Below, piece by piece: positions 7,656 to 60,653 of a DNA stretch of 64,000 nt. Both the position numbers and the translations under genes were made by a program. Within the stretch, counting starts at the first letter, position 1, and each line of letters starts with the position of its first letter. The notes under the pieces are model-generated. The model did not search any database. It had not been told where the DNA came from and saw only the letters and a program-made list of their open reading frames with translations. Source of the DNA: a virus; IMG/VR virus record IMGVR_UViG_3300020048_000027, positions 64,001 to 128,000 of that record; one strand, 5' to 3'.

Positions 7656-8042
7656 CTAATCTATTAAACCTACTGTAGGAAGTTTCTTTCTTATTTTAAA
7701 TTCTATTTCGCTTAACAGTCCTTCCTCATTTATAAACATTTCATTTTTTCTTCTATCTCTATCTTTATGAATATACTCCAAAACAATTGCGATTACTTTT
7801 TCAGCAAATTTTACTCCTGTTTTACTTGTATAGTAAAACTTATGGTTTGTAATTTGTATATGGTCATCTCCTATAAAAATATAGTAGTTAAGTTTCTTAT
7901 TCTCTATAAGATAGTTATCTGTTGTAGGATCAACTAGTACCGTTGTATCTAAATGCTTTAGGATAAGTTCCACAATATTTATAATTTGTGTTTCTTTTGG
8001 TGTAAAGTTAATTTTCTTCTTTAGGAAATTTATCATTTTCAT
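7656..8042 (-). CDS. hypothetical protein
   Basis: ORF. Confidence 0.65.
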   Translation of the reverse strand: MKMINFLKKKINFTPKETQIINIVELILKHLDTTVLVDPTTDNYLIENKKLNYYIFIGDDHIQITNHKFYYTSKTGVKFAEKVIAIVLEYIHKDRDRRKNEMFINEEGLLSEIEFKIRKKLPTVGLID

Positions 8043-8309
8043 AACTTTTAATGTAACTAATTAAATTATTATTTGTGTAAAGTTTTACCACATTGATGAC
8101 AGTATACAACATTATCAACCCAATGTAACCTACTAAAAGGATGAATACATGTTTCTTGTGATTCTTTTATAGGATTTTCCATTATTTAAAATTTAGAATA
8201 TAATACATTTTTGCTGTATGAATTAATTTATAACATTTAGAACCAAATTCTGTTTCATCTATTAAATTATTATAAAAGTTTATTCCTTTTGTGAATCTAG
8301 TTTCCATCT

Positions 8310-8540
8310 TTATGTTGGTAAAACTTTTACTACTCTTAGCCATACATTTTTAAAATACCATAAATATGGTTTTTCTGTCCAATGAGTTTTATTAGTACCT
8401 GCGTTAAGTAATACCATAGGCATCCCTAATAATAAAATAGGAAGTACAGGTATAAAAATTATTAACATAAGTATAAACATAAAAATGAAATACATAAAAA
8501 GTGAAATTATATCTGTAATCATTATTAGTATATTTTTCAT
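8310..8540 (-). CDS. small membrane protein
   Basis: Long hydrophobic segment. Confidence 0.55.
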   Translation of the reverse strand: MKNILIMITDIISLFMYFIFMFILMLIIFIPVLPILLLGMPMVLLNAGTNKTHWTEKPYLWYFKNVWLRVVKVLPT

Positions 8541-8595
8541 TTGATTATTTGTTTAATTATTAATGTATAACGTCTGTTTTTAGCATAACTTATAT

Positions 8596-8850
8596 CTAAA
8601 TATACGTTAAATAATCGTAGCAACCAACTTTATTTTGGAATTTAGGTATCTTTTCTATATACTTATTTAAATTACTTTTCACTATAAACCGCTTAGGAGT
8701 AATCCATATTCCAACGCTCCCTCCATTATAGCATATTTTCTTTAATCTACCTGTCTGTGTGTTAAAGATCTTTTTACATGTTGAAATTTGGATGTGTGGA
8801 TAGTCTACAAATCTCCATTTCAAAGTGTAATTAATTGATATTGAATTCAT
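8596..8850 (-). CDS. hypothetical protein (cassette-associated)
   Basis: ORF. Confidence 0.6.
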   Translation of the reverse strand: MNSISINYTLKWRFVDYPHIQISTCKKIFNTQTGRLKKICYNGGSVGIWITPKRFIVKSNLNKYIEKIPKFQNKVGCYDYLTYI

Positions 8851-8891
8851 TATGCTTTGGTATTTGTTAGTATATTAATTGTTGTAAAACA

Positions 8892-9179
8892 TTAAAGCTG
8901 ATGTTGGCTATCGTATATTTGTGAAAGTTCAGTAAAAGTATATTCTTTGTCTTTGTATAAAAACATTCCATAGCCTAAGTACCTCGCGTCTTGTTTTATC
9001 CAATCCCATAAAGTTATTTCTTCCTTTTCCTTTAACGATTTTACAACTGCGGGTAAAATTAACGCTTGCTTTTTCGCTTCTTTTAAACATTGAATAAATG
9101 CCCATTTCTCTTTTTCAAGTCCATCTAAACTATCACACATTTCTATTTTTCTCTCTAAGTACTCTATCATTTTTTCCAT
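8892..9179 (-). CDS. modular hypothetical protein spanning an attC-like core
   Basis: Reads through GCA GTT GTA (LPAVVKSL). Confidence 0.65.
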   Translation of the reverse strand: MEKMIEYLERKIEMCDSLDGLEKEKWAFIQCLKEAKKQALILPAVVKSLKEKEEITLWDWIKQDARYLGYGMFLYKDKEYTFTELSQIYDSQHQL

Positions 9180-9238
9180 AAATCTTATTTTTTTTAATTA
9201 ATTCGCTTGTAATCTTACCCGCTTAAAGTTAAAAGCAA

Positions 9239-9544
9239 TTACAAGTTTTCTCGCTCTTTTCTAAGTCTTTTTAACTCTTTTCCTATATGTTTTTTGGCTG
9301 ACATATCCCCAAGTTCGTCTGCATTTATATAGCTATCTTCTAAAATATGTATCTCATTTGTAACTTTAGTTAATTGTTCCTCAATCTCTAAAACTTGCAA
9401 CGTGCTATTAACTGCGCAAAAGGTTAATGCTTTGCCAAGTTTAGCAAATACCATATCAAAATCGTCATAACTAATTTTATCAGCGAAGTACATTTCTGTA
9501 AACACTTTGCCTAACTCTAGTAATTCTTTTTTTATTTCTTCCAT
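9239..9544 (-). CDS. modular hypothetical protein
   Basis: C-terminal module shared with 12500..12835. Confidence 0.7.
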   Translation of the reverse strand: MEEIKKELLELGKVFTEMYFADKISYDDFDMVFAKLGKALTFCAVNSTLQVLEIEEQLTKVTNEIHILEDSYINADELGDMSAKKHIGKELKRLRKERENL

Positions 9545-10185
9545 AATAATTAAATTTTGTATTTATTAAATCGCAATAACATTTTACGCTTATAGTTGTA
9601 GTTTATTACCGTTTTCTTAACCATTCTATACAATCAATGAAACCTTGTTTGTAAATTTCATCGTCTCTGTATGTTTGTAAAGTTTCTGTAAATCCTCTAT
9701 GTTTTTTTTTTAACTCTTTTTTCTATTTCCGAAAACTGTTCTTCTTCTGTCGGTAACAAAACCCCAACTAAATTATAACCATTATTTTCACTTTCTTTTT
9801 TATTTACGATATTTCCATATATGCTTTTTGCCATTTCTTTATTTTTTAAGTTTGTTAATATTCCTTTAAAACAATGGTTATACTCATCGTTATAAAACAT
9901 TTAAACTTTGTTGTAACCTGTCTATTTCTGCGATAAATATATCAATATTTACATCTATTTGTCTTTTTTCTAACTTAAGTAATTCTATTTGCTTATAGTT
10001 AAAGTCAATACTTTCTTGAATGTTTTTTTTGTCCATTTTTTAAACGTTTAATAACTATGCAAATAATTTATATTGCGTAGTCGGTTAGTATTCAGTTTTT
10101 GTTAATCAATTTAATTTATTTCAATATTTAAAATTCGTAATTCTTAGGCAATACAAATCATTTACTAATACAGTTAGCAGTAATA

Positions 10186-10407
10186 CTAACCTTCGTTCTC
10201 CCAAACAATAGATTTGTACATACTCTCTATTCTACTATGTAATGCGTTTGAAACTTCCATTTTGTTTCCAAGTGCTTCATTCGCACATTCAGCAGCAAAT
10301 CTTTTCGCTACATCTTCTGCATACATTTGCATTAATTCTTCCGTTGTAAAGTTTCCTTTAATTGAATTGTAAAACTCCTTTGCTGTTCTTAATTGATAAA
10401 TTCTCAT
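10186..10407 (-). CDS. cassette-encoded hypothetical protein
   Basis: Bounded by GTTAGCAGTAATAC and GTACTACTGCTAAC. Confidence 0.7.
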   Translation of the reverse strand: MRIYQLRTAKEFYNSIKGNFTTEELMQMYAEDVAKRFAAECANEALGNKMEVSNALHSRIESMYKSIVWENEG

Positions 10408-10784
10408 TTTATTTATATTTAGTTGTTAATAATCCGTACTACTGCTAACACCACCTATACGCAAGTTTTGTGAAAAACAAAACCTGACGTATAGCTGTAA
10501 CCGTTATGCGTAATTAAAGCCGACTTTTTATGTTTACGCTAATGGTTTTTAGGCTTTTTGTCTTTGCTTTACTTGCTATTTTCTGTAATGTTCCCTTTAA
10601 AATCGCATAACTCCGTATAAAAAATAAATTACATTTTTCTTTTAAAGTAACTTACTATTAGTAATCCTATTGCAAATCCAACTGCAATACCACCAATAAA
10701 AAATACTATCATTATTTCTATTTCTTCCATTTTATTATAATTTAAGTTAATTAACCATTCATTTTTTATACTATAAAGTTGTAG

Positions 10785-11084
10785 TTAATTGCCGTTGTCT
10801 TTTAACTTGTTTTTTAACCAATCAAAGCAAGCGTTAAATCCAAAAATATACTGTATACTTTCATTTCTGTTATTCACAAACTTGTTTGCAGTCAATCGTT
10901 CTAACTCCGATACCATTTGTTCTTTTGTCGGCAACGTAACACCAACTACGCATAAACGTATAAAATGCTCTACGTAATGCTTTAGTTCTTCTCCAGTAAA
11001 TTGAATCATAGCTATTTGCTTTAGGTTTGTTATTTCCTCTCCGTAAAAGCTTGTGTGTAATTTGCAAAATTCTTTTTTAGTCAT
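10785..11084 (-). CDS. modular hypothetical protein
   Basis: Reads through the core (LCVVGVTL). Confidence 0.65.
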   Translation of the reverse strand: MTKKEFCKLHTSFYGEEITNLKQIAMIQFTGEELKHYVEHFIRLCVVGVTLPTKEQMVSELERLTANKFVNNRNESIQYIFGFNACFDWLKNKLKDNGN

Positions 11085-11145
11085 AATATTTAGTATTTAT
11101 TAATTATTTTATACGTTTATACGTTTAAAGTTAGCAAACATAAAA

Positions 11146-11349
11146 TTATTCACACTCCACCTCGTCTTTTGAAAATGATATACCGTATGCTTTTGCAACA
11201 TCCCATTCAAAATCATTACCAGAATCAATTAAACTTCTTCTAATACCATTTTTTACTGTACGGTCGTTACAAAACCACCCACAATTAATAAATTGTCGTT
11301 TTACTTCTTCATCTCCTTTATAAAAAATAACTACACTTGGTAAACTCAT
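11146..11349 (-). CDS. cassette-encoded hypothetical protein (start MSLPSV)
   Basis: ORF inside segment 11130-11368. Confidence 0.6.
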   Translation of the reverse strand: MSLPSVVIFYKGDEEVKRQFINCGWFCNDRTVKNGIRRSLIDSGNDFEWDVAKAYGISFSKDEVECE

Positions 11350-11353
11350 AATT

Positions 11354-11584
11354 TTACGATTTGCTAACAAGGTATATATGCAATACCCTATTAAGGTTTA
11401 TATTAAATTTTAAAGTTCTCGGTACTCCGTGAAGGTCACAGAAGTAATGTATAATCTTATCAGTAAATGGTGAAAGATTACCATAATCACCTTGAAATAC
11501 ACCATTTTTAGCGGGAACTTTTCCTCTACGCTGGTCTTCAGTTAATAGATTGATACGTTCTTCCCAAGTTAATTCTCTTTCCAT
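11354..11584 (-). CDS. hypothetical protein
   Basis: ORF ending across an attC-like half-site; TACCTTTG box upstream. Confidence 0.6.
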   Translation of the reverse strand: MERELTWEERINLLTEDQRRGKVPAKNGVFQGDYGNLSPFTDKIIHYFCDLHGVPRTLKFNINLNRVLHIYLVSKS

Positions 11585-11696
11585 ATTCTATATTTTTTTA
11601 CAAAGGTAAAACAAATTAATGACAAAACCTAACAAAGAATATGTATCATTAAAACGAACACATATTCTCAAACGTTATGTGTAATAAAATAAAAAA

Positions 11697-11912
11697 TTAT
11701 TTACCATATCTACTATTAACAAAAACTCTATTCGCACCTATTGTAAGTGATAGTTGATTTTGTTCTTTCATAAGTATCTCAAATTGATTTTCTATTCTTA
11801 ACCTATCTAAATTAATTTTTAACATATTAACCAATTTATCCAACTCTGTATCTCTTTTTGAAGTTAGAAAATCAATTTGTTCTTTGTAATGTAGTTCGAG
11901 TTTTTGTTCCAT
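11697..11912 (-). CDS. cassette-encoded hypothetical protein
   Basis: ORF inside segment 11674-11946. Confidence 0.6.
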   Translation of the reverse strand: MEQKLELHYKEQIDFLTSKRDTELDKLVNMLKINLDRLRIENQFEILMKEQNQLSLTIGANRVFVNSRYGK

Positions 11913-12036
11913 TTGTATAATTTTTTATTTTACTAAATATATCAACAAATATAAGAAATAAATCTTACTTTGTCTATTTTTTAATGAAAAGATTTACTTC
12001 TCATATTTGTGACCGTTATAAGTAATAAAACAAAAA

Positions 12037-12216
12037 TTATGAGTTTTCATTTTTCTTTGTTCCATCCTCATTCCACTTTTTAAGAAACTCCTGATTTTCA
12101 GGTTTTGAAAGTTCTTCTTTCATCGCCTCGTCAAATTTATTTTGTATTTCAGTGTTTTGTTTATCTGTTAATGTATTCAAATCCTGAAAATCTTCTTTTG
12201 TTATTTTTGATTTCAT
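12037..12216 (-). CDS. cassette-encoded hypothetical protein (start MKSKIT)
   Basis: ORF inside segment 12015-12248. Confidence 0.6.
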   Translation of the reverse strand: MKSKITKEDFQDLNTLTDKQNTEIQNKFDEAMKEELSKPENQEFLKKWNEDGTKKNENS

Positions 12217-12499
12217 TTTATATAATTTTTGTTTTACATACTTATAACAAAGTGTAAAAAACATTAAAACAATTTTTTATACTCAACCGTTATAAGTAAT
12301 ATTATTTTTGTTTTGAATTTTTATAACTATCGTGTGTTTTATTAACAGCATCTTGAACACTTTCCATCCAAGTTCTGAATATTGGTCTGAAGTTAAATAT
12401 ACTCATCTCAGCATCCCAAATTACTTTTGGTATTTCAATTTTAATAATTTTTCGGTTTTTCATAATTTAATTTCGTATTCATTCATTTTAATTAATTTT

Positions 12500-12835
12500 T
12501 TAAAAGTTCATATTCTTAAAAGTTATGCGTAATTGCAGGTTTTCTCTTAATTTTCTAAGTCTTTTTAACTCTTTGCCTATGTGTTTTTTAGCGGATATAT
12601 CATCACATTCGTCTGCATTTATATAGCTATCTTCTAACTCATATATTTGTTGTGTTAGGGATTTTTCCCCCAATGAACCAACCTTTAACTTTCCGCTAAC
12701 TGCGCTTAAATTTGATTGCTCGTTATGGTATTCTTCGGCAATATTTGCACATTGACTTGCTATTAATTCTTTCCTTGGGTTTGTATCTAACCACTTTTGG
12801 AATTTCGCTATTAATTTTTTTCTATCTTCTGTCAT
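12500..12835 (-). CDS. modular hypothetical protein
   Basis: Shares the EDSYINADE..SAKKHIGKELKRLRK module with 9239..9544. Confidence 0.7.
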   Translation of the reverse strand: MTEDRKKLIAKFQKWLDTNPRKELIASQCANIAEEYHNEQSNLSAVSGKLKVGSLGEKSLTQQIYELEDSYINADECDDISAKKHIGKELKRLRKLRENLQLRITFKNMNF

Positions 12836-12933
12836 AATTTTTAAATTTTGTCTTTTATTTATTGTTTTTAAATTCTAGTTTCTATTAACCACCCGCCCAA
12901 ACTAATAAGTATATACTGTACCCTCTAAAATTC

Positions 12934-13218
12934 TTAGAAATTATTATCATAAAAGTCATCATTACTACCAAAAATTGGTAAAGATAGAAATGCTATTACT
13001 AAACCTAAAACTATATGTATCCTCCAAGCATGCATTCCAGGTAATAATTCACCTGAATAATAATATAATTGGAGAAATCCCCAATAAGAAGCATTAGGGT
13101 CAAGAACATTTAGTATCCAAAATATAGTGAACATTAATAGTGCAAATAAGGGTATAATAGATGATACGAAAACATACCCCAATAATACTCTACTTATATA
13201 ATTTTCTATTTTTTTCAT
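12934..13218 (-). CDS. membrane protein
   Basis: Two hydrophobic segments. Confidence 0.6.
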   Translation of the reverse strand: MKKIENYISRVLLGYVFVSSIIPLFALLMFTIFWILNVLDPNASYWGFLQLYYYSGELLPGMHAWRIHIVLGLVIAFLSLPIFGSNDDFYDNNF

Positions 13219-13417
13219 ATTTTAGTTTTCTTCTGCTAAATATATAGTAATAATCATTGCAGGGATCCACATTATTAAAATTGTACCAAGCCAACCATCT
13301 TCTACTTTATATGCTAAATATATAGGAAGAGCTAACCAAATTACAAGAAATGTAATTACATCTCTGAGTCTTGTCCAATAGTTCATTTTTTATGTTTTAA
13401 ATAATTTTCTAAAAATT

Positions 13418-13885
13418 TCATGGTTTTAATTTATTATACAAGTCTTCAACAATAGCTCCTATTAAACCTCTACGATTTGTGATATCATATAATGTAAACC
13501 CTCTTCGTAACAATTTATCTGTTACATAACTCTCCAGATATGCAATTTCTAACCCTATATTAACAACATCTTCATTCTTAACTTTAATTAAGAATTCACT
13601 ACAAGTTCTAAATTGTGCTTTACCAAAACTTACCCTAGCATCCTGGATATAACCTGTTTTATAACCTGGAACTATAAAGTTTGTAATGCCAACTTCTAAA
13701 ACTGTACCAACTATATCTTCTAACTTTTTAGTTGAGCCTGTTTCATCAGGGTATTGGTTTACAATATAGAAATCTCCTTTAACCCCAATACAACTTAGGG
13801 ATGAACCATCTATGATTTTAACTTGGTCACCAACCTTGATTGAAGGGTTGGTATGACTCTTTACTTCGAAACTATTTTTTTCCAT
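13418..13885 (-). CDS. hypothetical protein
   Basis: ORF. Confidence 0.7.
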   Translation of the reverse strand: MEKNSFEVKSHTNPSIKVGDQVKIIDGSSLSCIGVKGDFYIVNQYPDETGSTKKLEDIVGTVLEVGITNFIVPGYKTGYIQDARVSFGKAQFRTCSEFLIKVKNEDVVNIGLEIAYLESYVTDKLLRRGFTLYDITNRRGLIGAIVEDLYNKLKP

Positions 13886-54659: not shown

Positions 54660-54761
54660 AATTTAAGGTATTGTGTATAAGTATTTCTAAAGATACGAAA
54701 TAGTAATGTAACAAGAAACTTTTTCTTAGATTACTTTACTACTATACTTATACGGAGTTAG

Positions 54762-54834
54762 AGAACATAATCAGATTCGAACTGATGAATAACGGTTTTG
54801 CAGACCGTTCCTTTAACCGCTCAGGCATATGTTC
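54762..54834 (-). tRNA. tRNA-Cys(GCA)
   Basis: Cloverleaf; ACGGT-CTGCAAA-ACCGT. Confidence 0.9.
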
Positions 54835-54840
54835 TTAAAA

Positions 54841-55036
54841 AAATTCTTTGCCTAAATTTCAGTAGGATATAATTGGTCTGCCTTGAACAGACTGCTTCAC
54901 TTGGCAATTATAATATCTACAATAAACACAACTGCTGATACAGTCTTTTTAAAGTTTAATACAAGGCTCTGCCCCTTCTGGTATTTCACAGGTCTATTTA
55001 GCCTTTATTATATGTTCATCTTCAATCAAAGAATTT
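54841..55036 (-). ncRNA. candidate ~195-nt structured RNA
   Basis: Closed by AAATTCTTTG/CAAAGAATTT; several internal hairpins. Confidence 0.5.
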
Positions 55037-55500
55037 TAAAGTCTTAGCACCCTCTTTCTTATAGCTTACCGAGTTATCAGTTACGGAGCTTGTATAAGAG
55101 TAGGGTCACATAGTTAATCTACACAATGATGATACCTCTCACATCTAGGCATAATTATTAACTACTTGCTGAGAACTCATTTGTGTTGGGACTTGCTCAT
55201 TACCGAACCATCTCTCATTGCTTTCTCAAGGCAACAACACATCTAGGATTACTCCATTAATTTATATAATCTTATCCATTAAGTGACACATGCAGTTAAT
55301 TTATGTTATATCCCCTAATATCCTGTCAATTCAGGATTAATATCTTTAATAGTTTCTCATGGTGTAAGTTATACACACTATTAGGTTCAATGTTTAGCCT
55401 TTTTTAATATAACATTAAGAGTGCCTTAGTTCTCTTACTAGTATTTTTTGCTTATGTGTTTTATCACATGGTTATAATAGGACTTTCCAGTGTTATATTT
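55037..55500 (-). ncRNA. candidate large (~460-nt) structured RNA
   Basis: No ORF; many stems; sits within the tRNA region. Confidence 0.55.
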
Positions 55501-55738
55501 ACTTATCTATAATTTTTCTAATACTATTCCAGTTGATATATATGAATAGTGCTGCTGATGCTGTCGCTAGGCAGTTCCATCCTTGTATAAATCCTGCAAT
55601 AGCTCCTACTAAGAATAGTACGTTAGTTAACCCTACTTTTGCGTACCATACGTTAAATTTGTCTATCATAATTTGCATTTAATGTTTATTTCTATTCTAT
55701 TATAAATATACGAATTTTAATTCTAATTAACAACTTTT

Positions 55739-56245
55739 TTAGTAAAATAAAAATTCTTCCCAATTTTTCGGGATATATGACACCCTTTTTAATAACATTA
55801 ATGAATGAGGTCTTTTTAAAACAGGTAACTCTTTTCCCCATTCCTGCAAAGATAAATCACTCTTTTCATTATTGCATTTTTTGCAAGCTGTTACAAGATT
55901 ATCCCATGTATTTAATCCTCCTTTACATTGAGGTATCACATGATCCAGAGTTAACTTATGTGTTTCGTAGATCTTTCCGCAATATAAACACGTATTGTCA
56001 TCTCTTTTGAATACGTTTACCCTATTTAAAGGAACGTTCCCATAGTTTACGTTTACGTAGTTGTTAATTCTGATTACCGAGGGCCTGAATATATCTATGT
56101 CTTTTCTCACTAGTCCGAACTTAGAATCATGGTGTTTTAATATCTCGCAGTTACCTTTCATGTAAATCACAAAAGCTCTTGAAGAACTGATTACATTTTT
56201 AGGTAAATACGAGGAATCTAGTAATAATGTTTTATCATATTTCAT
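55739..56245 (-). CDS. HNH endonuclease (McrA-like)
   Basis: RD..TCLYCG, TLDHVIP..KGG..TW.NLV.AC..CN. Confidence 0.9.
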   Translation of the reverse strand: MKYDKTLLLDSSYLPKNVISSSRAFVIYMKGNCEILKHHDSKFGLVRKDIDIFRPSVIRINNYVNVNYGNVPLNRVNVFKRDDNTCLYCGKIYETHKLTLDHVIPQCKGGLNTWDNLVTACKKCNNEKSDLSLQEWGKELPVLKRPHSLMLLKRVSYIPKNWEEFLFY

Positions 56246-56274
56246 AACCTATTAAAGTGTTTTTTAAATAAAAT

Positions 56275-56300
56275 AAAGGGGTCACCGATGCCACCCCTTT
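56275..56300 (-). terminator. intrinsic terminator at the end of the tRNA array
   Basis: AAAGGGGT...ACCCCTTT stem followed by a T-rich tail. Confidence 0.6.
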
Positions 56301-56414
56301 TTGACAGGATTTTTTATGAGAGCTTTAGTTTGGATTTATGTGAGACCTTCCCAACTCACCGCAAGTTCCTGTTTTGCCCTCGTACTGTTTTCGGTATTAA
56401 GGTATTTTTAAAAG

Positions 56415-56489
56415 TAGCAGGAGTCAGATTCGAACTGACGTAGTTTGGCTTATGAGACCAAGCTGGGACCATCTCCAGTCTATCCTGCG
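56415..56489 (-). tRNA. tRNA-Met(CAT), initiator-like
   Basis: CAT anticodon; unpaired C1. Confidence 0.8.
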
Positions 56490-56508
56490 ATTTGAATTCA
56501 TTAATTAG

Positions 56509-56581
56509 CGCAACGAAAAGGACTTGAACCCTTAACCTTCGGGTTTGGAATCCGCTGCTCTACCAATTGAGCTACCGATGC
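56509..56581 (-). tRNA. tRNA-Trp(CCA)
   Basis: Cloverleaf; imperfect anticodon stem. Confidence 0.75.
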
Positions 56582-56916
56582 TTTTAAATGTACTACATTT
56601 TATATGATTTTGATTGTTTCCTATGATTTCATAGTGAAAATCTCTAACCCCTAAATCTTGTACACCGTGTAAACAATGTTTTTGGATAGGACATTTATGT
56701 AAATTACATTTCATATATACATAAATACATAAATAAACTTCTTTTGTGTCCTTGGAGGATTCGAACCTCTGTGCTATATAGAATTCTCTTTGGGATGATC
56801 AGTCTTCTAATTGTTCTATAAGGTACTTAGCTACTTGTGCACTTTCACATTTCCCACTTTAACCTCTACTTTTACCAGTAGTTGAGCCAGCCATTACTCT
56901 TCTCAGACATTTATTG

Positions 56917-56990
56917 TGACCTATGAAAGACTTGAACTTTCAACCGCAAGTTTAGAAAACTTGTGCTCTATCCAATTGAGCTAATAGGCC
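56917..56990 (-). tRNA. tRNA-Arg(TCT)
   Basis: CAAGT-TTTCTAA-ACTTG. Confidence 0.9.
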
Positions 56991-57232
56991 GATTCCTGGA
57001 TTTCGTTCCAGGAGACGTGATTGTTTTATCTACTTTTTAGCAGTACCAAATGGATTCGAACCACCCCTTATATTCGTATTAATCCAAATATAATTTGTTC
57101 CAACACATAACGTATACTTTATGTGCAAACTGTTTGACAGTTATTTATTTTGATACTATGTTTGTTGCGGAAAGAAAGGGAATCGAACCCATGTCCTTTA
57201 AAAAAAACATAAATGTCTACAGTTAATAATAG

Positions 57233-57312
57233 TACCCCTGATAGGACTCGAACCTACATGCTTACGCGACAATGCTTAAAACTGTTGTGTCTACCAATTT
57301 CACCACAGGGGC
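57233..57312 (-). tRNA. tRNA-Leu(TAA)
   Basis: Long variable arm. Confidence 0.9.
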
Positions 57313-57405
57313 TGGTATTTGTGATTACCTTTGCAAAGGCTACGCAAGCTCACAAATAAAGCTTTATTATTATGAATCCTTACTAGTTCAGATTCGCGTA
57401 TTCTG

Positions 57406-57478
57406 TGTGACACATCGGGATCGAACCGACACCTTCCTACACCACAAGCAGGAGTACTACCTTTATACGAATGTCACC
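57406..57478 (-). tRNA. tRNA-His(GTG)
   Basis: GTG anticodon; G-1 encoded. Confidence 0.85.
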
Positions 57479-57493
57479 ATATAAAAATTTTAG

Positions 57494-57566
57494 TAGCGCA
57501 AAAGAGAATTGAACTCTTGACCTTAGGTTTATGAATCCTATGTTCTACCAACTGAACTACTGCGCC
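57494..57566 (-). tRNA. tRNA-Met/Ile2(CAT)
   Basis: TAGGA-TTCATAA-ACCTA. Confidence 0.85.
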
Positions 57567-57623
57567 TGGAGTATGGTAGGAGCTAGCTTCCTTGTGGTTA
57601 CCGTACGTTTTATCCACTTTTTG

Positions 57624-57705
57624 AAGAGGATGTGGGATTTGAACCCACGGGCCTTTACGACCTACAGTTTAGCAAACTGCTGCATTACCACTCTGCCAAT
57701 CCTCC
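57624..57705 (-). tRNA. tRNA-Ser(GCT)
   Basis: Long variable arm. Confidence 0.9.
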
Positions 57706-57721
57706 AATTAATACTATACTA

Positions 57722-58303
57722 TTAGAACTCTTTTAATAAGCAGTATGTTACTGTTTTTTGATTTTTTACAAGGTCTAATATTTTGTAATATTCCCCTACA
57801 TGATTAATGACCTGACATCCTACCGACCATCCTCCTATAAGTTTTGTCCAGTACGACAAATTCTTCTCATACAGAACTGTATGGAAGTTTATGCCTATAA
57901 TTCCCTGGTATAATTCTCCCATCTCCTCCACTAAGTTGTTTTTGTTCCAATCCCTAAAGTATTTTATTGGTTTTCTCTGCTTTAGTGCCGGCATCCTACC
58001 TTTATGTAGTCCGTAGCTCCAAAGGTCGTAGTACCATTCGTTCGTCTTTATTACCGCTACTCCCTTAGAGGAGTAGTTCGTATAGTTCTTTAGTCCTGTT
58101 GTTCCTGCATTTGTAGTACCTTTCACTACTTTCACACACTTATCGCCCTTAAATATGTAGAACTTATCATCAAACTCATTATATGCATCTTCCTCAGACT
58201 GTACCCCTAATATCCAGTACTCGGTTGGTATTTGCTTAAAACTATCTAAGCTTTTCACTTTACTTAAAAGTGCCTTATCCGTATATGATTTTACGTTACT
58301 CAT
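57722..58303 (-). CDS. putative peptidoglycan peptidase (YkuD-like H...S.GC motif)
   Basis: GINFH...WSVGCQV. Confidence 0.5.
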   Translation of the reverse strand: MSNVKSYTDKALLSKVKSLDSFKQIPTEYWILGVQSEEDAYNEFDDKFYIFKGDKCVKVVKGTTNAGTTGLKNYTNYSSKGVAVIKTNEWYYDLWSYGLHKGRMPALKQRKPIKYFRDWNKNNLVEEMGELYQGIIGINFHTVLYEKNLSYWTKLIGGWSVGCQVINHVGEYYKILDLVKNQKTVTYCLLKEF

Positions 58304-58338
58304 AATTAATTATTATTATTACTATTATTAAACTTTTG

Positions 58339-58412
58339 TCCTCATAATAGGATTTGAACCTATGACATTTGACGTATCAGGTCAACACTCTACCAAGCTG
58401 AGTTATATGAGG
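58339..58412 (-). tRNA. tRNA-Ile(GAT)
   Basis: TTGAC-CTGATAC-GTCAA. Confidence 0.9.
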
Positions 58413-58474
58413 TGTTGCAGGATATCGCTTAACCTGCTGAAGTTAATTACTCTTCTTTTATTACGATTTTTTTG

Positions 58475-58546
58475 TGAACATAGAAAGATTCGAACTCTCA
58501 CCAAAACGTCCGTAGCGTTCCGTTCTATCCATTAAACTATACGTCC
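58475..58546 (-). tRNA. tRNA-Arg(ACG)
   Basis: GAACG-CTACGGA-CGTTT. Confidence 0.85.
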
Positions 58547-58714
58547 ATTAGTATTACAAATTCTAACCTACCGACTTTAGCAATATTAAAAAGGTGCTGT
58601 CTGCTAGGAAGTATTACTATTTCTTCCGAATCTCCACCTGTTCTTGAATAATTCTGTGACTGGTACTCCTTACCGTCTAACATGTTTAAAACCTTCATAC
58701 TTGTTAATTTTTTG

Positions 58715-58787
58715 AGGGCTGGATGGGGTTCGAACCCATGCGCTTTTGCTTAACAGGCAAATGCTCTACCAACTGAGCTACCAACCC
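58715..58787 (-). tRNA. tRNA-Asn(GTT)
   Basis: TTTGC-CTGTTAA-GCAAA. Confidence 0.9.
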
Positions 58788-58952
58788 TAGTTGTAACTTT
58801 TCTAAGCTTAAGAGTTACCAACTTACCCAACTAACGATTTGGACATACGATGCGCTTTAAACTAAGAATACCGAAATATTCAATCTAAACGATTTAAGTA
58901 GGCGTTACATGCTCTTCGTTCCCTATCCTATGCATCGGAATCAGGCTGTTCG

Positions 58953-59025
58953 TGGTTACAGTTGGAATCGAACCAACGACACCTAGGGCTTCAACCTAGT
59001 GCTCTACCAACTGAGCTATGTAACC
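58953..59025 (-). tRNA. tRNA-Phe(GAA)
   Basis: CTAGG-TTGAAGC-CCTAG. Confidence 0.9.
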
Positions 59026-59031
59026 TAGTAG

Positions 59032-59102
59032 TACTGATAGAGAGAATCGAACTCTCGTTGATAGGTCGAAAACCTACTGTCCTGCCTCTAGACGATACCA
59101 GC
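59032..59102 (-). tRNA. tRNA-Glu(TTC)
   Basis: GTAGG-TTTTCGA-CCTAT. Confidence 0.9.
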
Positions 59103-59160
59103 AAGTGTACTTCATCTTATATCTTTCGATTAACGCGATTATAGTACTAACTAAACTCTG

Positions 59161-59227
59161 TGGGATACAGTGGATTCGAACCACTCGGTTAGAGTTTTAC
59201 AGACTCGACCTCAACCCGAGGCATCCC
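59161..59227 (-). tRNA. atypical short tRNA-Tyr(GTA)
   Basis: 67 nt; reduced D arm, no long variable arm. Confidence 0.65.
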
Positions 59228-59239
59228 TTAATAATTTTT

Positions 59240-59303
59240 TAAATAGAATAGGATTCGAACCTATGTCTTGCCTGCGGCTATGCTACCACTACACCATCTA
59301 TTC
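59240..59303 (-). ncRNA. tRNA-like RNA with a collapsed anticodon arm
   Basis: Acceptor, D and T arms intact; anticodon arm is GCC-GCA-GGC. Confidence 0.7.
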
Positions 59304-59336
59304 AAGGTTAATTAAGAACCTTATTCTGCAAAATTG

Positions 59337-59409
59337 CGGTCTACAAGGGCGTCGAACCCTCAATCTCCTCCGTGACAGGGAGGCATGTTACCACCAACAC
59401 CTCTAGACC
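59337..59409 (-). tRNA. tRNA-Asp(GTC)
   Basis: CCTCC-CTGTCAC-GGAGG. Confidence 0.9.
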
Positions 59410-59512
59410 TTGATTCCCTTCGTTGCTACTTACACCTTCTAGCTAGTGTGCTTTCACCATTTTTATTTATTTTAAATCGCCATACCTACTGGGCTTTTAT
59501 GCTACGATTTTG

Positions 59513-59586
59513 TACTCCATATAGGAATTGAACCTATGACTTCCAAGATATAAGCTTGACACTCTGACCAACTGAGTTAATGGAGC
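59513..59586 (-). tRNA. tRNA-Ile(TAT)
   Basis: TCAAG-CTTATAT-CTTGG. Confidence 0.85.
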
Positions 59587-59667
59587 AGTTGAACTAAGAA
59601 AAATTTGTAATTAAATGTTTTTTGAATCACATATTGAAGTAACCCGTCTATTTACTACTTACTTTCG

Positions 59668-59741
59668 TACAGATAGAGGGATTCGAACCCCCGACTTTTT
59701 CCATGTAAAAGAAACACTCTGACCAACTGAGTTATATCTGC
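59668..59741 (-). tRNA. tRNA-Val(TAC)
   Basis: TTTCT-TTTACAT-GGAAA. Confidence 0.9.
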
Positions 59742-59756
59742 GTTTTTTAATTTTTG

Positions 59757-59829
59757 TGGAACAGATGGGACTCGAACCCACATCCTTTTCGTTGCAAACG
59801 AAATGCTAAACCAATTTAGCTACTGCCCC
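59757..59829 (-). tRNA. tRNA-Ala(TGC)
   Basis: TGC anticodon; G3:U70. Confidence 0.9.
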
Positions 59830-59838
59830 TTACTATAG

Positions 59839-59911
59839 AGCTTTCTATCGGGGTCGAACCGATGACCTTCTGTTTACAAAACAGGTGCTCTACCAATTGA
59901 GCTAAGAAAGC
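59839..59911 (-). tRNA. tRNA-Thr(TGT)
   Basis: CCTGT-TTTGTAA-ACAGA. Confidence 0.9.
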
Positions 59912-59973
59912 GTTTACTTGTCTTTCCAAGTTGTCATTTAGTTTTTCTGTACTGGGGACTAAAACCCCTATAG

Positions 59974-60046
59974 AGCGGCTACTCGGATTCGAACCGAGGA
60001 CATTCACCTTGGAAGGGTGACGTTCTACTCACTGAACTACAACCGC
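59974..60046 (-). tRNA. tRNA-Gly(TCC)
   Basis: TCACC-CTTCCAA-GGTGA. Confidence 0.9.
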
Positions 60047-60136
60047 AAATTAAAAATAGTTATATTAACCAAGTGACCAATTAATATAAGGGTAATGTTG
60101 TCACTTCCTACGGCAGTTACCCACTTCTATTTTTAG

Positions 60137-60218
60137 TACCCTCTGAGAGACTCGAACTCTCACACCTTTCGATACTAGAACCTAAATCTAGCGCGTCTAC
60201 CAATTCCGCCAAGAGGGT
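60137..60218 (-). tRNA. tRNA-Leu(TAG)
   Basis: Long variable arm. Confidence 0.9.
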
Positions 60219-60227
60219 ATTTATTTG

Positions 60228-60298
60228 CTTTATATAAAAGACTCGAACTTTTACTTCCTGGCTTTCGCCAGGCGTGCTGACCCATACACTCATATAAA
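60228..60298 (-). ncRNA. tRNA-like RNA with a GAAA tetraloop in place of the anticodon loop
   Basis: CCTGGC-GAAA-GCCAGG; acceptor TTTATAT/ATATAAA; T loop TTCGAGT. Confidence 0.75.
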
Positions 60299-60398
60299 CA
60301 ACCAAATAATTAAGACTTGCAATTCTACTCTATTTGATTCGAACATAAAACTACTTTAGCCCCTTTGCAACAGGTATATTTCGTTTCGCCATTCTTAG

Positions 60399-60474
60399 TC
60401 TAGGTAGTAGGATTTGAACCTACGAGTTCTCTTGCTCCCAAAGCAAGCGGGGTACCGGGCTCCCCAATACCTAG
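60399..60474 (-). tRNA. tRNA-Pro(TGG)
   Basis: CTTGC-TTTGGGA-GCAAG. Confidence 0.9.
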
Positions 60475-60483
60475 TTATTATTG

Positions 60484-60554
60484 ATGTCCCAAAAGGGGTC
60501 GAACCTTTACTGTCTGAACCAAAATCAGGTGTGCTACCATTACACAATAGGACA
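60484..60554 (-). tRNA. tRNA-Gln(TTG)
   Basis: CCTGA-TTTTGGT-TCAGA. Confidence 0.9.
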
Positions 60555-60563
60555 AGTTAATTG

Positions 60564-60653
60564 CGGAAGATGTAGGACTTGAACCCACACACCCTTTAAA
60601 GGATTGACTGTTTTCAAAACAGCTGCCGATAGACCGACTCGGCTTAATCTTCC
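60564..60653 (-). tRNA. tRNA-Ser(TGA)
   Basis: Long variable arm. Confidence 0.85.

Follow-up and report, generated by a model that had tools for sequence, protein, structure and literature searches.

Two-module genes of the array

The window analysed is a stretch of 64,000 nucleotides (positions 64,001-128,000 of IMGVR_UViG_3300020048_000027) from a large Flavobacterium-type phage with a 153.6-kb genome. On the minus strand of the region 8892-12835 there are five ORFs (A-E), each built from two modules (Table 1). An N-module of about 45 codons is followed by a valine codon GTT and then by a C-module. The junction valine is encoded in all five ORFs by GTT preceded by A, in identical phase, at codon 45-47. 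The N-modules are of nearly uniform length (45-50 aa) and end with a similar Leu-x-x-Val motif. The five ORFs and the junction peptides described in an earlier note on this DNA were all recovered, coordinates included, and the claim that the frame crosses the core with GTT as a valine codon held for each of them, AGTT being in phase throughout.

Some members of the array deviate from this scheme. In ORF B the stop codon is replaced by CAA, so that the frame continues for 11 codons across the AAC box; this box is one of five copies of an intergenic motif, all confined to 10.5-12.5 kb. Only a frameshift, at an A10 run near 9707-9716, brings ORF C into its C-module. The arms of site G surround a complete 33-aa membrane-peptide ORF (ORF G, 10629-10730). 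One C-unit has no ORF in the junction frame; its homologues were found in contigs L019 and L023. Finally, there is a whole-gene cassette (ORF F), the boxes of which pair at 13 of 14 positions, the sole mismatch being G.T on the sense strand.

The two-module proteins belong to no family in Pfam or PHROGs, and ORFs D and B had no tblastn match in 50,697 GenBank phage records. An AlphaFold2 model predicts two helical hairpins; the linker that joins them at the junction, residues 44-54, has low confidence.

Table 1. Features of the array; coordinates are those of the window
Feature	Coordinates	Strand	Remarks
ORF B, 111 aa	12500..12835	-	N-module 12698-12835; junction GTT 12698-12700; C-module common to ORF A
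GTT box (R') of ORF B	12692..12701	-	begins AGTT
AAC box (R'') at end of ORF B C-unit	12521..12532	-	
Compact attC-like site	12236..12299	-	45.9 bits, model R1
Compact attC-like site	11621..11684	-	44 bits, model R1
AAC box 5' of ORF D	11129..11135	-	followed by 4-nt bulge
Left arm (L'') of ORF D site	11106..11124	-	21 nt 5' of ATG
ORF D, 99 aa	10785..11084	-	N-module 10944-11084; GTT 10944-10946, then C-module
Right arm (L') of ORF D site	10948..10966	-	coding; AGTT immediately after
GTT box (R') of ORF D	10938..10947	-	
AAC box (R'') at end of ORF D C-unit	10777..10786	-	overlaps stop codon
Expanded site G	10613..10773	-	arms 10760-10773 and 10613-10626
C-unit without junction-frame ORF	10501..10612	-	GTT box 10603-10612, AAC box 10501-10510
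Compact attC-like site	10437..10513	-	32.3 bits, model R1
Whole-gene cassette, ORF F (10186-10407)	10173..10449	-	GTT box 10436-10449, AAC box 10173-10186
ORF C	9595..9900	-	GTT box 9759-9769, AAC box 9594-9604; frameshifted paralogue of ORF D C-module
Left arm (L'') of ORF A site	9573..9589	-	AACT and 4 nt before arm
ORF A, 101 aa	9239..9544	-	right arm 9414-9430, GTT box 9403-9413, AAC box 9227-9237
Left arm (L'') of ORF E site	9210..9222	-	AACT and 4 nt before arm
ORF E, 95 aa	8892..9179	-	right arm 9049-9061, GTT box 9039-9048
AAC box (R'') at end of ORF E C-unit	8881..8889	-	

Folding of the expanded and compact sites

The array has a distinct anatomy, with covarying arms and a strand-specific fold. 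At four sites (ORFs D, G, A and E) a stem of 13-19 bp pairs the leader with the final codons of the N-module. The loops of these expanded sites are about 150 nt long (135-154 nt between 13-nt arms) and contain the start codon. The order of elements is AAC box, spacer of about 5 nt, the stem, 0-1 nt, and GTT box. The 19-nt arms of the ORF D site form 18 Watson-Crick pairs and one G.T pair. It had been suggested that the ORFs start within attC-like loops; this is true of ORFs D, A, E and G, but not of ORF B, which has no enclosing stem, nor in the usual form of ORF C, where the stem is atypical. Among the homologues, P0007, P0008 and P0013 also lack the stem.

Of 15 genes, 8 have a right arm separated from AGTT by 0-1 nt and a left arm that precedes the ATG by 14-30 nt. 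The stems of these genes, with the 33-aa ORF G as the ninth, were used in an anchored covariation test, in which loop length was constant at 148-154 nt. Over 13 positions, cognate arms formed 12.3 pairs and non-cognate arms 6.7, and the observed total was matched by one of 20,000 permutations. The whole genome contains 28 inverted repeats with arms of at least 12 nt and loops of 40-300 nt, and 11 of them fall within these 4.3 kb. Given this local clustering and the pairing of cognate arms, the stems exceed chance expectation. The mismatches are asymmetric: when read on the sense strand, they comprise 13 G.T pairs and no internal A.C pair (six A.C pairs were taken as terminal extensions). The minimum-energy fold of this strand contains the AAC/GTT helix, a 4-nt bulge and the 19-bp stem. 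The folding energies of whole units are ordinary (z-score -1.27 for the sense and -1.02 for the antisense strand).

Each C-module is also flanked by an inverted repeat formed by its GTT and AAC boxes. By hand count, the GTT box is more complementary to the AAC box that closes its own C-unit than to the AAC box of its own site (10/11 versus 4/11 for A, 9/10 versus 6/10 for E, 8/10 versus 5/10 for both D and G).

Genome-wide, stems ending at AGTT are no more common than stems ending at control tetramers, and the only match in a strict scan for AGTT..AACT was ORF A. Thus the system is restricted to this array.

The array also holds three compact attC-like sites of about 62 nt each, oriented on the sense strand. 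A covariance model trained solely on other genomes (R1) recovered all three, as well as both sites of Polaribacter phage P12002L; it did not detect the expanded sites. The P12002L sites have been published as attC, and one of them was recombined by IntI1 in E. coli, the sole published result of this kind (Qi et al. 2023; PMC9892861). The compact family covaries, with 47 double-change cells against 12.3 in shuffled alignments, and none of 500 shuffles reached 47. It occurs in cassette arrays of Flavobacteriales as well as in their phages. In bacteria, the G.U-bearing strand of the compact sites is antisense to both neighbouring genes in 45 of 47 cases, which excludes an mRNA element there. Rfam had no match to the region 8000-13500 up to an E-value of 1, nor to the bacterial compact sites. 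Loose DNA pattern scans produced many chance matches, and only those with a paired stem were retained.

Compact and expanded sites alike have outer AAC and GTT boxes, an unpaired spacer and an inner stem, and structure is conserved over sequence, as shown by the covariation of the arms and the folding of one strand. The start of the cassette is complementary to its own inverse-core box both in a bacterial array and in the phage C-units; in a Flavobacteriales chromosome, this complementarity to the 3' box holds at 7/8, 7/8 and 8/8 positions. The compact sites are thus kin to the attC-like sites of cassettes. The attC-like reading proposed earlier is borne out structurally, the architecture being common to a covarying attC-like family with an integron cassette signature in Flavobacteriales. 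The expanded sites depart from the usual description of attC as a non-coding element of 57-141 nt located 3' of the cassette ORF. At about 190-200 nt they are longer than usual, they contain the start codon and about 45 codons, and their right arm and GTT box are translated.

Partner switching and its breakpoints

ORFs A and B share the C-terminal part (137 nt at 80% identity; BLASTP 61% over 61 aa, E-value 7e-21, starting from Ala-Val), and segments 9595-9768 and 10778-10946 have both the second module and the 3' flank in common. The recurrence of C-modules noted earlier was verified for both pairs. In contig L024, the C-unit of ORF D is identical at 165 of 166 nt (99.4%) and follows an unrelated N-module, a sign of recent exchange. 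The N-module of ORF B was found in 102 representative protein clusters, where 82 tails fall into at least 76 unrelated groups. The N and C halves are not found together in metagenomic homologues; the switches lie at AGTT and the phase is fixed.

The ends of the matching segments coincide with the boxes. The stretch 11124-10944, matched in another contig, is exactly the N-unit of ORF D, and the stretch 9413-9227, also matched in another contig, is exactly the C-unit of ORF A. Contig matches beginning at 9230, 8886, 10506 and 12018 start inside an AAC box; the one at 8886, within the box at the end of the ORF E C-unit, matches contig L019 at 99.5%. At the boxes, identity of about 90-99% gives way to background over no more than a few bases. 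A 76-nt segment (10431-10506) is 100% identical to Flavobacterium phage mymlan6-1, although the flanks are non-homologous and the phages unrelated. In phages mymlan6-1 and mumin6-1 divergence begins immediately 3' of an AAC box. Stretches of 9-21 nt are conserved across the junction in otherwise unrelated modules.

Judging from these alignments, partners switch at both the AAC and the GTT boxes. The claim that the crossover is at GTT was correct in that the switches occur at AGTT, but it was incomplete, as exchange is also observed at the AAC box 3' of each stop codon. N-units therefore assort independently of C-units. If attC is taken as the guide, the canonical crossover point would be the AAC box rather than GTT.

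Candidate mechanism and comparison with known systems

We interpret the locus as a phage-borne integron-like cassette array without an integrase (CALIN), in which the loops of some attC-like sites have expanded to about 150 nt; we assign this reading a probability of roughly 0.55. On the sense strand, each site begins with the AAC box immediately 3' of the previous stop codon, then has a spacer of about 5 nt and the left arm. Next come a leader rich in A, the start codon ATG and the roughly 45 codons of the N-module, the last of which form the right arm. The GTT box, whose GTT is the fixed-phase valine codon, and the C-module follow, up to the next AAC box. The sense strand would fold as single-stranded DNA, similar to the bottom strands of attC. 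Strand exchange at the AAC box would transport whole genes, and exchange at the GTT box would place new C-modules in frame after N-modules, producing new two-domain combinations. In the phage, the folded form is presumably DNA rather than RNA, the exchange is probably performed by a structure-specific recombinase of the host or of another origin, and the shuffling may be adaptive.

No integron integrase or tyrosine recombinase (PF00589) was found in six phage records (this genome and five related ones), nor any serine recombinase (PF00239), Y1 transposase or reverse transcriptase (PF00078) in this genome. In five Flavobacteriales genomes with compact sites, all matches to TIGR02249 scored under the cut-off and lacked profile positions 179-238. 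Since there is no integron integrase and attI beside the array, it is at most a CALIN. The earlier proposal of site-specific shuffling fits the switching of partners at AGTT in fixed phase; it is not matched by a recombinase gene in this genome.

Even the CALIN reading meets difficulties. Canonical attC recombination has a single crossover point, whereas here there are two points of exchange. The strand that folds in the phage is also that of the mRNA, which leaves room for an RNA role of the expanded sites; these sites exceed the usual attC lengths and are missed by model R1. The six phage records contain no integrase, and ORF B and several homologues have no stem.

A more specific version, which we regard as tentative, is an assembly line active during infection in phages of Flavobacteriia. 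The attC-type sites would be flipped, with the folding strand coding; the loops would encode N-domains; and a structure-specific recombinase of the host or another source would swap genes at the AAC boxes and half-genes at the GTT boxes. The products would be combinatorial two-domain early proteins, e.g. for host takeover or counter-defence.

One alternative is that the modules are shuffled passively, by the ordinary recombination, relaxed homologous or illegitimate, of related phages that infect a cell together, with the boxes providing microhomology and the stems serving another purpose, such as insulation or stabilisation of mRNA. Selection for intact arm pairs and frame would make the breakpoints look site-specific and predicts exchange at both boundaries. 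A similar passive model has been put forward for the PeSL cassettes of T4-type phages (PMC2839356, PMC4122927). No recombinase gene was detected in the phages, their folding strand is the mRNA strand, and the 9-21 nt conserved across junctions of unrelated modules could provide the microhomology. However, the 76-nt identical unit has non-homologous flanks and the 166-nt unit lies beside unrelated sequence, and transfers without flanking homology fit site-specific exchange better. This explanation also sits poorly with the bacterial compact homologues, which have the integron cassette signature and fold on the antisense strand, and with the P12002L site of the compact family that is a substrate of IntI1 (PMC9892861). 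On balance, we consider it unlikely.

It is very improbable that the combinations arise in RNA or in translation, with the stems aligning junctions either to let RNA be cut and ligated or to let ribosomes take off and land at GTT, so that several pairings are made from unchanged DNA. The sense-strand fold with G.U pairs, the same GTT codon and phase at every junction, and the bringing together of unit ends by the stems would suit such a process, but the alternative pairings are present as DNA in separate contigs, GTT is not followed by a stop codon or other bypass signal, and the related compact sites in bacteria are unable to act as mRNA. Distances of 300-400 nt far exceed those of known translational bypassing (T4 gene 60). 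Least probable is the absence of any shuffling, the ORFs being ordinary diverged paralogues of one two-domain family with one half evolving faster: the near-equal N-modules with their common ending and the two-sequence comparisons confined to the window would agree with it, but the sequence data already contradict it, given the loss of identity within a few bases of the boxes, the 76 unrelated tail groups behind one N-module and the 99.4% identical C-module DNA behind unrelated N-modules.

The closest known systems are the integron attC sites and integrase-less clusters (CALINs) of virulent phages (Qi et al. 2023; PMC9892861). Common to both are imperfect inverted repeats that combine an outer AAC...GTT box pair with an unpaired spacer and an inner stem, the single-strand fold of one strand, cassette ends complementary to their own box, and co-oriented small genes in arrays with no integrase nearby. 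Unlike those sites, several here have loops of about 150 nt that carry a leader and a start codon and code for an N-terminal domain; translation continues through the right arm and the GTT box, and both boxes are points of exchange. The folding strand is the sense strand in phages and the antisense strand in bacterial arrays.

PeSL cassettes of T4-type phages, in which promoter-terminator motifs lie between whole genes (PMC2839356, PMC4122927), are similar in having repeated intergenic stem-loops around small accessory ORFs in hyperplastic regions of large virulent phages, and in marking the edges of insertions, deletions and replacements among relatives. However, they have not been reported within reading frames or joining protein halves in fixed phase. 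By eye, the 14-30 nt that separate the left arm from the ATG seem too few for a promoter.

The earlier note set the system apart from diversity-generating retroelements (DGRs) and shufflons, and this distinction holds. Shufflons and the Gin/Cin/Min systems also join a constant N-part to alternative C-parts at a short in-frame recombination site, but they invert oppositely oriented segments and have the gene for the recombinase next to them; every ORF here lies on the same strand, neither PF00589 nor PF00239 is present, and the N-parts vary too. DGRs likewise diversify phage proteins, but they require a reverse transcriptase with template and variable repeats and alter single residues, whereas whole domains change here, PF00078 is absent, and the repeats are inverted and unit-specific. 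In attI1 ORF-11 and fused integron cassettes, the recombination site gives the downstream cassette gene initiation signals or N-terminal residues; these are few residues or accidental fusions. In the phage array, in contrast, the site itself encodes a folded domain of about 45 residues, and does so regularly and in many combinations.

The system looks like a new way to build proteins from cassettes. Integron cassettes are known to transport whole genes; recombination sites that encode domains would open a new route of protein innovation, as a single crossover would fuse two domains in frame. The concept of attC would broaden to longer, coding sites with opposite polarity in phages, and a recombinase other than a canonical integrase may exist in Flavobacteriia or their phages. 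The proposal offers a concrete, testable account of mosaic small ORFs in accessory regions of large aquatic phages. For locating such arrays, the compact family, which is not in Rfam and occurs in chromosomes and phages of Flavobacteriales, provides a handle.

Several other candidates were considered. The box motif may resemble the arms of Xer/dif sites; no complete two-arm site was seen, and the resemblance is no more than a lead. An IS200/IS605-type hairpin mechanism was rejected, as this genome has no Y1 transposase. Cruciform cutting by a junction resolvase fits poorly with the bias of G.T pairs to one strand. MITE-like terminal repeats were also rejected, as the arms vary between units and yet remain complementary.

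Two-module genes and their junctions

The contig holding the window is viral, 153.6 kb long, with an IMG/VR completeness rating of 94%. With a G+C content of 26-39%, it encodes at least 23 tRNAs, and almost all of its genes are on the minus strand. Its DNA matches in GenBank are few: Flavobacterium phages and a 462-kb uncultured phage. Within the window, 23 tRNA genes are clustered on the minus strand at 54761-60653; the anticodon loop call of one of them is odd.

The two-module ORFs A-E belong to a series of small minus-strand ORFs at approximately 8.9-12.9 kb of the window. All five, with the junction peptides claimed for them in an earlier note, were found. The claim that the frame crosses GTT in a fixed phase also holds: the junction DNA is xxA GTT in identical phase at codon 45-47 of each ORF. 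Below, the approximately 45 codons ahead of this Val codon are called the N-module, and the coding part behind it the C-module.

The C-terminal module said to be common to ORFs A and B is indeed present in both (137 nt at 80% on the DNA level). The protein match between their second halves begins at Ala-Val (61% over 61 aa, E 7e-21). Another C-module, together with its 3' flank, is common to C and D, again as claimed. ORF C is disrupted by a frameshift within a run of ten A, in the stretch 9700-9725; either the copy is in decay or the run is slippery. At 12500-12540, ORF B reads CAA where its homologues, ORF A and protein P0004, have a stop codon, and thus its frame extends by 11 codons, through the AAC box.

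The start codons were also claimed to lie in the loops of attC-like sites. This is the case for D, A, E and a 33-aa ORF, G. It is not so for B, which has no such stem, nor for C, which has an atypical internal stem only. The stem of D encloses the start codon and the entire N-module and ends immediately 5' of AGTT; the arrangement in A, E and G is the same. Of the 28 inverted repeats in this size range across the whole genome, 11 fall within this 4.3 kb.

Two-module ORFs, the stem of ORF D and compact sites (window positions)
Feature	Position	Strand	Description
ORF A	9239-9544	minus	two-module gene
ORF B	12500-12835	minus	two-module gene
ORF C	9595-9900	minus	two-module gene
ORF D	10785-11084	minus	two-module gene
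ORF E	8892-9179	minus	two-module gene
ORF D stem	11106-11124 / 10948-10966	minus	19-nt inverted repeat, 18 Watson-Crick + 1 G.T
Compact site	12299-12236	sense (minus)	model R1, 45.9 bits
Compact site	11684-11621	sense (minus)	model R1, 44 bits
Compact site	10513-10437	sense (minus)	model R1, 32.3 bits

No family for the two-module proteins was found in Pfam or PHROGs. The AlphaFold2 model of ORF B consists of two predicted helical hairpins with a low-confidence linker, residues 44-54, which is the junction. Several C-modules of homologues contain Cys-x-x-Cys pairs. That a conserved "handle" is paired with variable "heads" in an accessory region hints at a role in host takeover or in counter-defence, although this is a guess. 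A 74-aa ORF at 11146-11370 has a PHROG match to "major head protein" (E 1e-12, 60 residues), a label that is doubtful given the protein size.

Alternating units and the folding strand

From 11135 to 8881 on the minus strand, N-units and C-units alternate regularly. An N-unit starts with an AAC box, usually AACT, directly after or overlapping the preceding stop codon. It is followed by 4 nt, the left arm of the stem, an A-rich leader of 14-30 nt, and ATG with approximately 45 codons, the final ones forming the right arm. A C-unit opens with a GTT box, whose first bases are AGTT; the C-module and its stop codon follow, and the next AAC box closes the unit. In every C-unit, the GTT box and this closing AAC box form an inverted repeat of 9-18 bp that brackets the unit. 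The sequence of these repeats varies among C-module families, but complementarity is kept.

The stems are specific to their units. Nine sites from the window and metagenomic contigs were anchored at the stem foot, and their arms were compared. Cognate arms pair at 12.3 of 13 positions, non-cognate arms at 6.7, and the observed total was reached by one of 20,000 permutations. The loop length is nearly constant in these sites (148-154 nt; 135 nt in G). In one N-module family, pairing of the arms by hand revealed a compensatory change from C-G to G-C between the window and contig L023.

The fold is also strand-specific. Counted by hand on the sense strand, the stem interiors contain 13 G.T and no A.C pairs, and three more repeats of the region, also read by hand, contribute G.T and zero A.C. 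Six A.C pairs reported by the scoring are taken to be terminal extensions that the scoring itself had made. The presence of G.T without A.C inside the stems identifies the sense strand as the folding strand. The predicted minimum-energy fold of this strand has an AAC/GTT helix, a 4-nt bulge and a 19-bp stem, whereas the outer helix is missing from the antisense-strand centroid structure.

Some units depart from this scheme. A unit of approximately 110 nt with its own GTT and AAC boxes is conserved in three contigs (window 10503-10612, L019 about 1240-1350, L023 1623-1727). It has no ORF in the junction frame; it could be either a small RNA or the remnant of a decayed C-module. In contig L006 (3001-3246), in proteins P0011 and P0015, and in many other tails, the C-parts start with a short conserved Gln-Ser-Glu-Gln-Leu-like stretch holding a second AGTT. 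In L006, each of the two AGTT sites has a matching AAC box, a hint of nested junctions or of a mini-unit of approximately 8 codons.

Exchange at the GTT and AAC boxes

The switching of partners proposed in the earlier note was checked on homologues, and the halves of ORF D were found apart. Homologue P0003 has the N-module of D followed by an unrelated zinc-ribbon C-part, whereas P0002 has an unrelated N-part followed by the C-module of D. The DNA match with the P0003 contig begins exactly where the left arm begins and extends to GTT (11124-10944, 90.6%). Similarly, the C-unit of A matches another contig from AGTT through AACT (9413-9227). The C-unit of D is identical to the P0002 contig at 165 of 166 nt, whereas of the preceding 40 nt just the final 11 are common. 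Such identity next to an unrelated 5' side speaks for a recent exchange.

The N-module of B recurs ahead of many tails, certain of which resemble the C-parts of E and D. Among 1.84 billion representative proteins, it was found in 102 clusters, nearly always at the N-terminus. When the 82 tails that are 15 aa or longer were compared by BLASTP, they formed 76 unrelated groups. The residue at the fixed junction position is Val in 31 of 94 proteins. Conversely, the C-module of A and B stands behind four unrelated N-modules.

The AAC box is an exchange point too. Matches to other contigs start at 9230, 8886, 10506 and 12018, all within AAC boxes; the one starting at 8886 has 99.5% identity over 377 nt. 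Two cultured Muminvirus phages, mymlan6-1 and mumin6-1, resemble each other as far as an AAC box and are unrelated beyond it. A 76-nt compact hairpin unit (window 10431-10506, L001 3001-3076) is 100% identical in mymlan6-1, with non-homologous flanks. Mymlan6-1 is a 38.5-kb Flavobacterium siphophage, and the phage of the window is 154 kb long. In the close relative mumin6-1, the AAC box is the same and the next unit is different.

Both the shuffling and the anatomy of the units are well supported. The closest known systems are attC sites and the integrase-less attC clusters of virulent phages (PMC9892861), and PeSL cassettes of T4-type phages (PMC2839356, PMC4122927). Our literature search found no account of attC-like sites with loops encoding protein domains, or of in-frame exchange of half-genes at such sites.

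Compact sites and the candidate mechanism

The array also holds three intergenic compact hairpins of approximately 62 nt. Each starts with an AAC box and a GGTT spacer; a stem with a conserved 10-nt loop follows, and the GTT box comes after the return stem. The same element, which has no Rfam entry, turned up in Flavobacteriales chromosomes and IMG/VR phages when these were scanned with a loose pattern. Thirty-three instances, all from genomes other than that of the window, aligned easily. Covariation in this alignment is strong: 93% of cells are paired, and double-sided changes occur in 47 cells versus 12.3 in shuffles; none of 500 shuffles matched this count.

The covariance model of these sites, R1, detects all three sites of the window, the mymlan6-1 unit and several sites of the 462-kb phage. 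It also detects both intergenic sites between methyltransferase genes of Polaribacter phage P12002L, with 54 and 53 bits. For this phage, an integrase-less cluster encoding two methyltransferases was predicted by Qi et al. 2023 (PMC9892861) to contain two attC sites, one of which IntI1 recombined into attI1.

In bacteria, compact elements are few per genome and form small co-oriented arrays with a spacing of approximately 1 kb between unrelated accessory genes (genomes G004, at L094 1800-5950, G005 and G006, and approximately 25 further Flavobacteriales loci, L029-L146). In one chromosome, the cassette-start boxes are complementary to the boxes at their own ends at 7/8, 7/8 and 8/8 positions, and far less so to the box with which they share a site. 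Integron cassettes, with the crossover inside the GTT/AAC box, classically show this signature, the complementarity of a cassette start to its own end box. The C-units of the phage carry the same signature.

The main rival explanation, itself plausible, is passive recombination at short conserved boxes, with selection preserving the stems and frames and the stems functioning in phage mRNA. Indeed, the strand bearing G.U pairs is sense in six of seven cases in viral contigs. For the bacterial elements, on the other hand, this strand is antisense to the ORFs on either side in 45 of 47 cases, so the fold there cannot be an mRNA feature. Most simply, the bacterial fold would be that of single-stranded DNA, by analogy with the attC bottom strand. 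The opposite polarity of the phage sites, noted at viral loci L156, L194, L227 and L247, allows the reading frame to run through them.

Searches for tyrosine recombinases were negative in this genome and five related phage records, as were those for a serine recombinase, a Y1 transposase and a reverse transcriptase in this genome. Five Flavobacteriales genomes with compact sites have Xer-like proteins only, without the IntI insertion, and no canonical integron integrase. This counts against an ordinary integron.

An attC-type single-stranded DNA mechanism is likely. The sites would fold as single-stranded DNA of the sense strand, and a putative structure-specific recombinase would exchange strands within the boxes. 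In attC bottom strands, cleavage takes place within the 5' AAC box. By analogy, exchange at the AAC box would move whole genes. Exchange at the GTT box would create fusions, and would require the other strand or a second half-site.

Two small ORFs of the region are wholly enclosed by perfect A/T-rich inverted repeats: 11697-11912 by a 16-nt repeat (11685-11700 / 11917-11932) and 12037-12216 by a 15-nt repeat (12026-12040 / 12222-12236). In the 462-kb phage LR756500, the intergenic DNA flanking the former, 71-aa ORF is 91-93% identical to the window, and approximately 3 kb of different sequence stands in place of the ORF.
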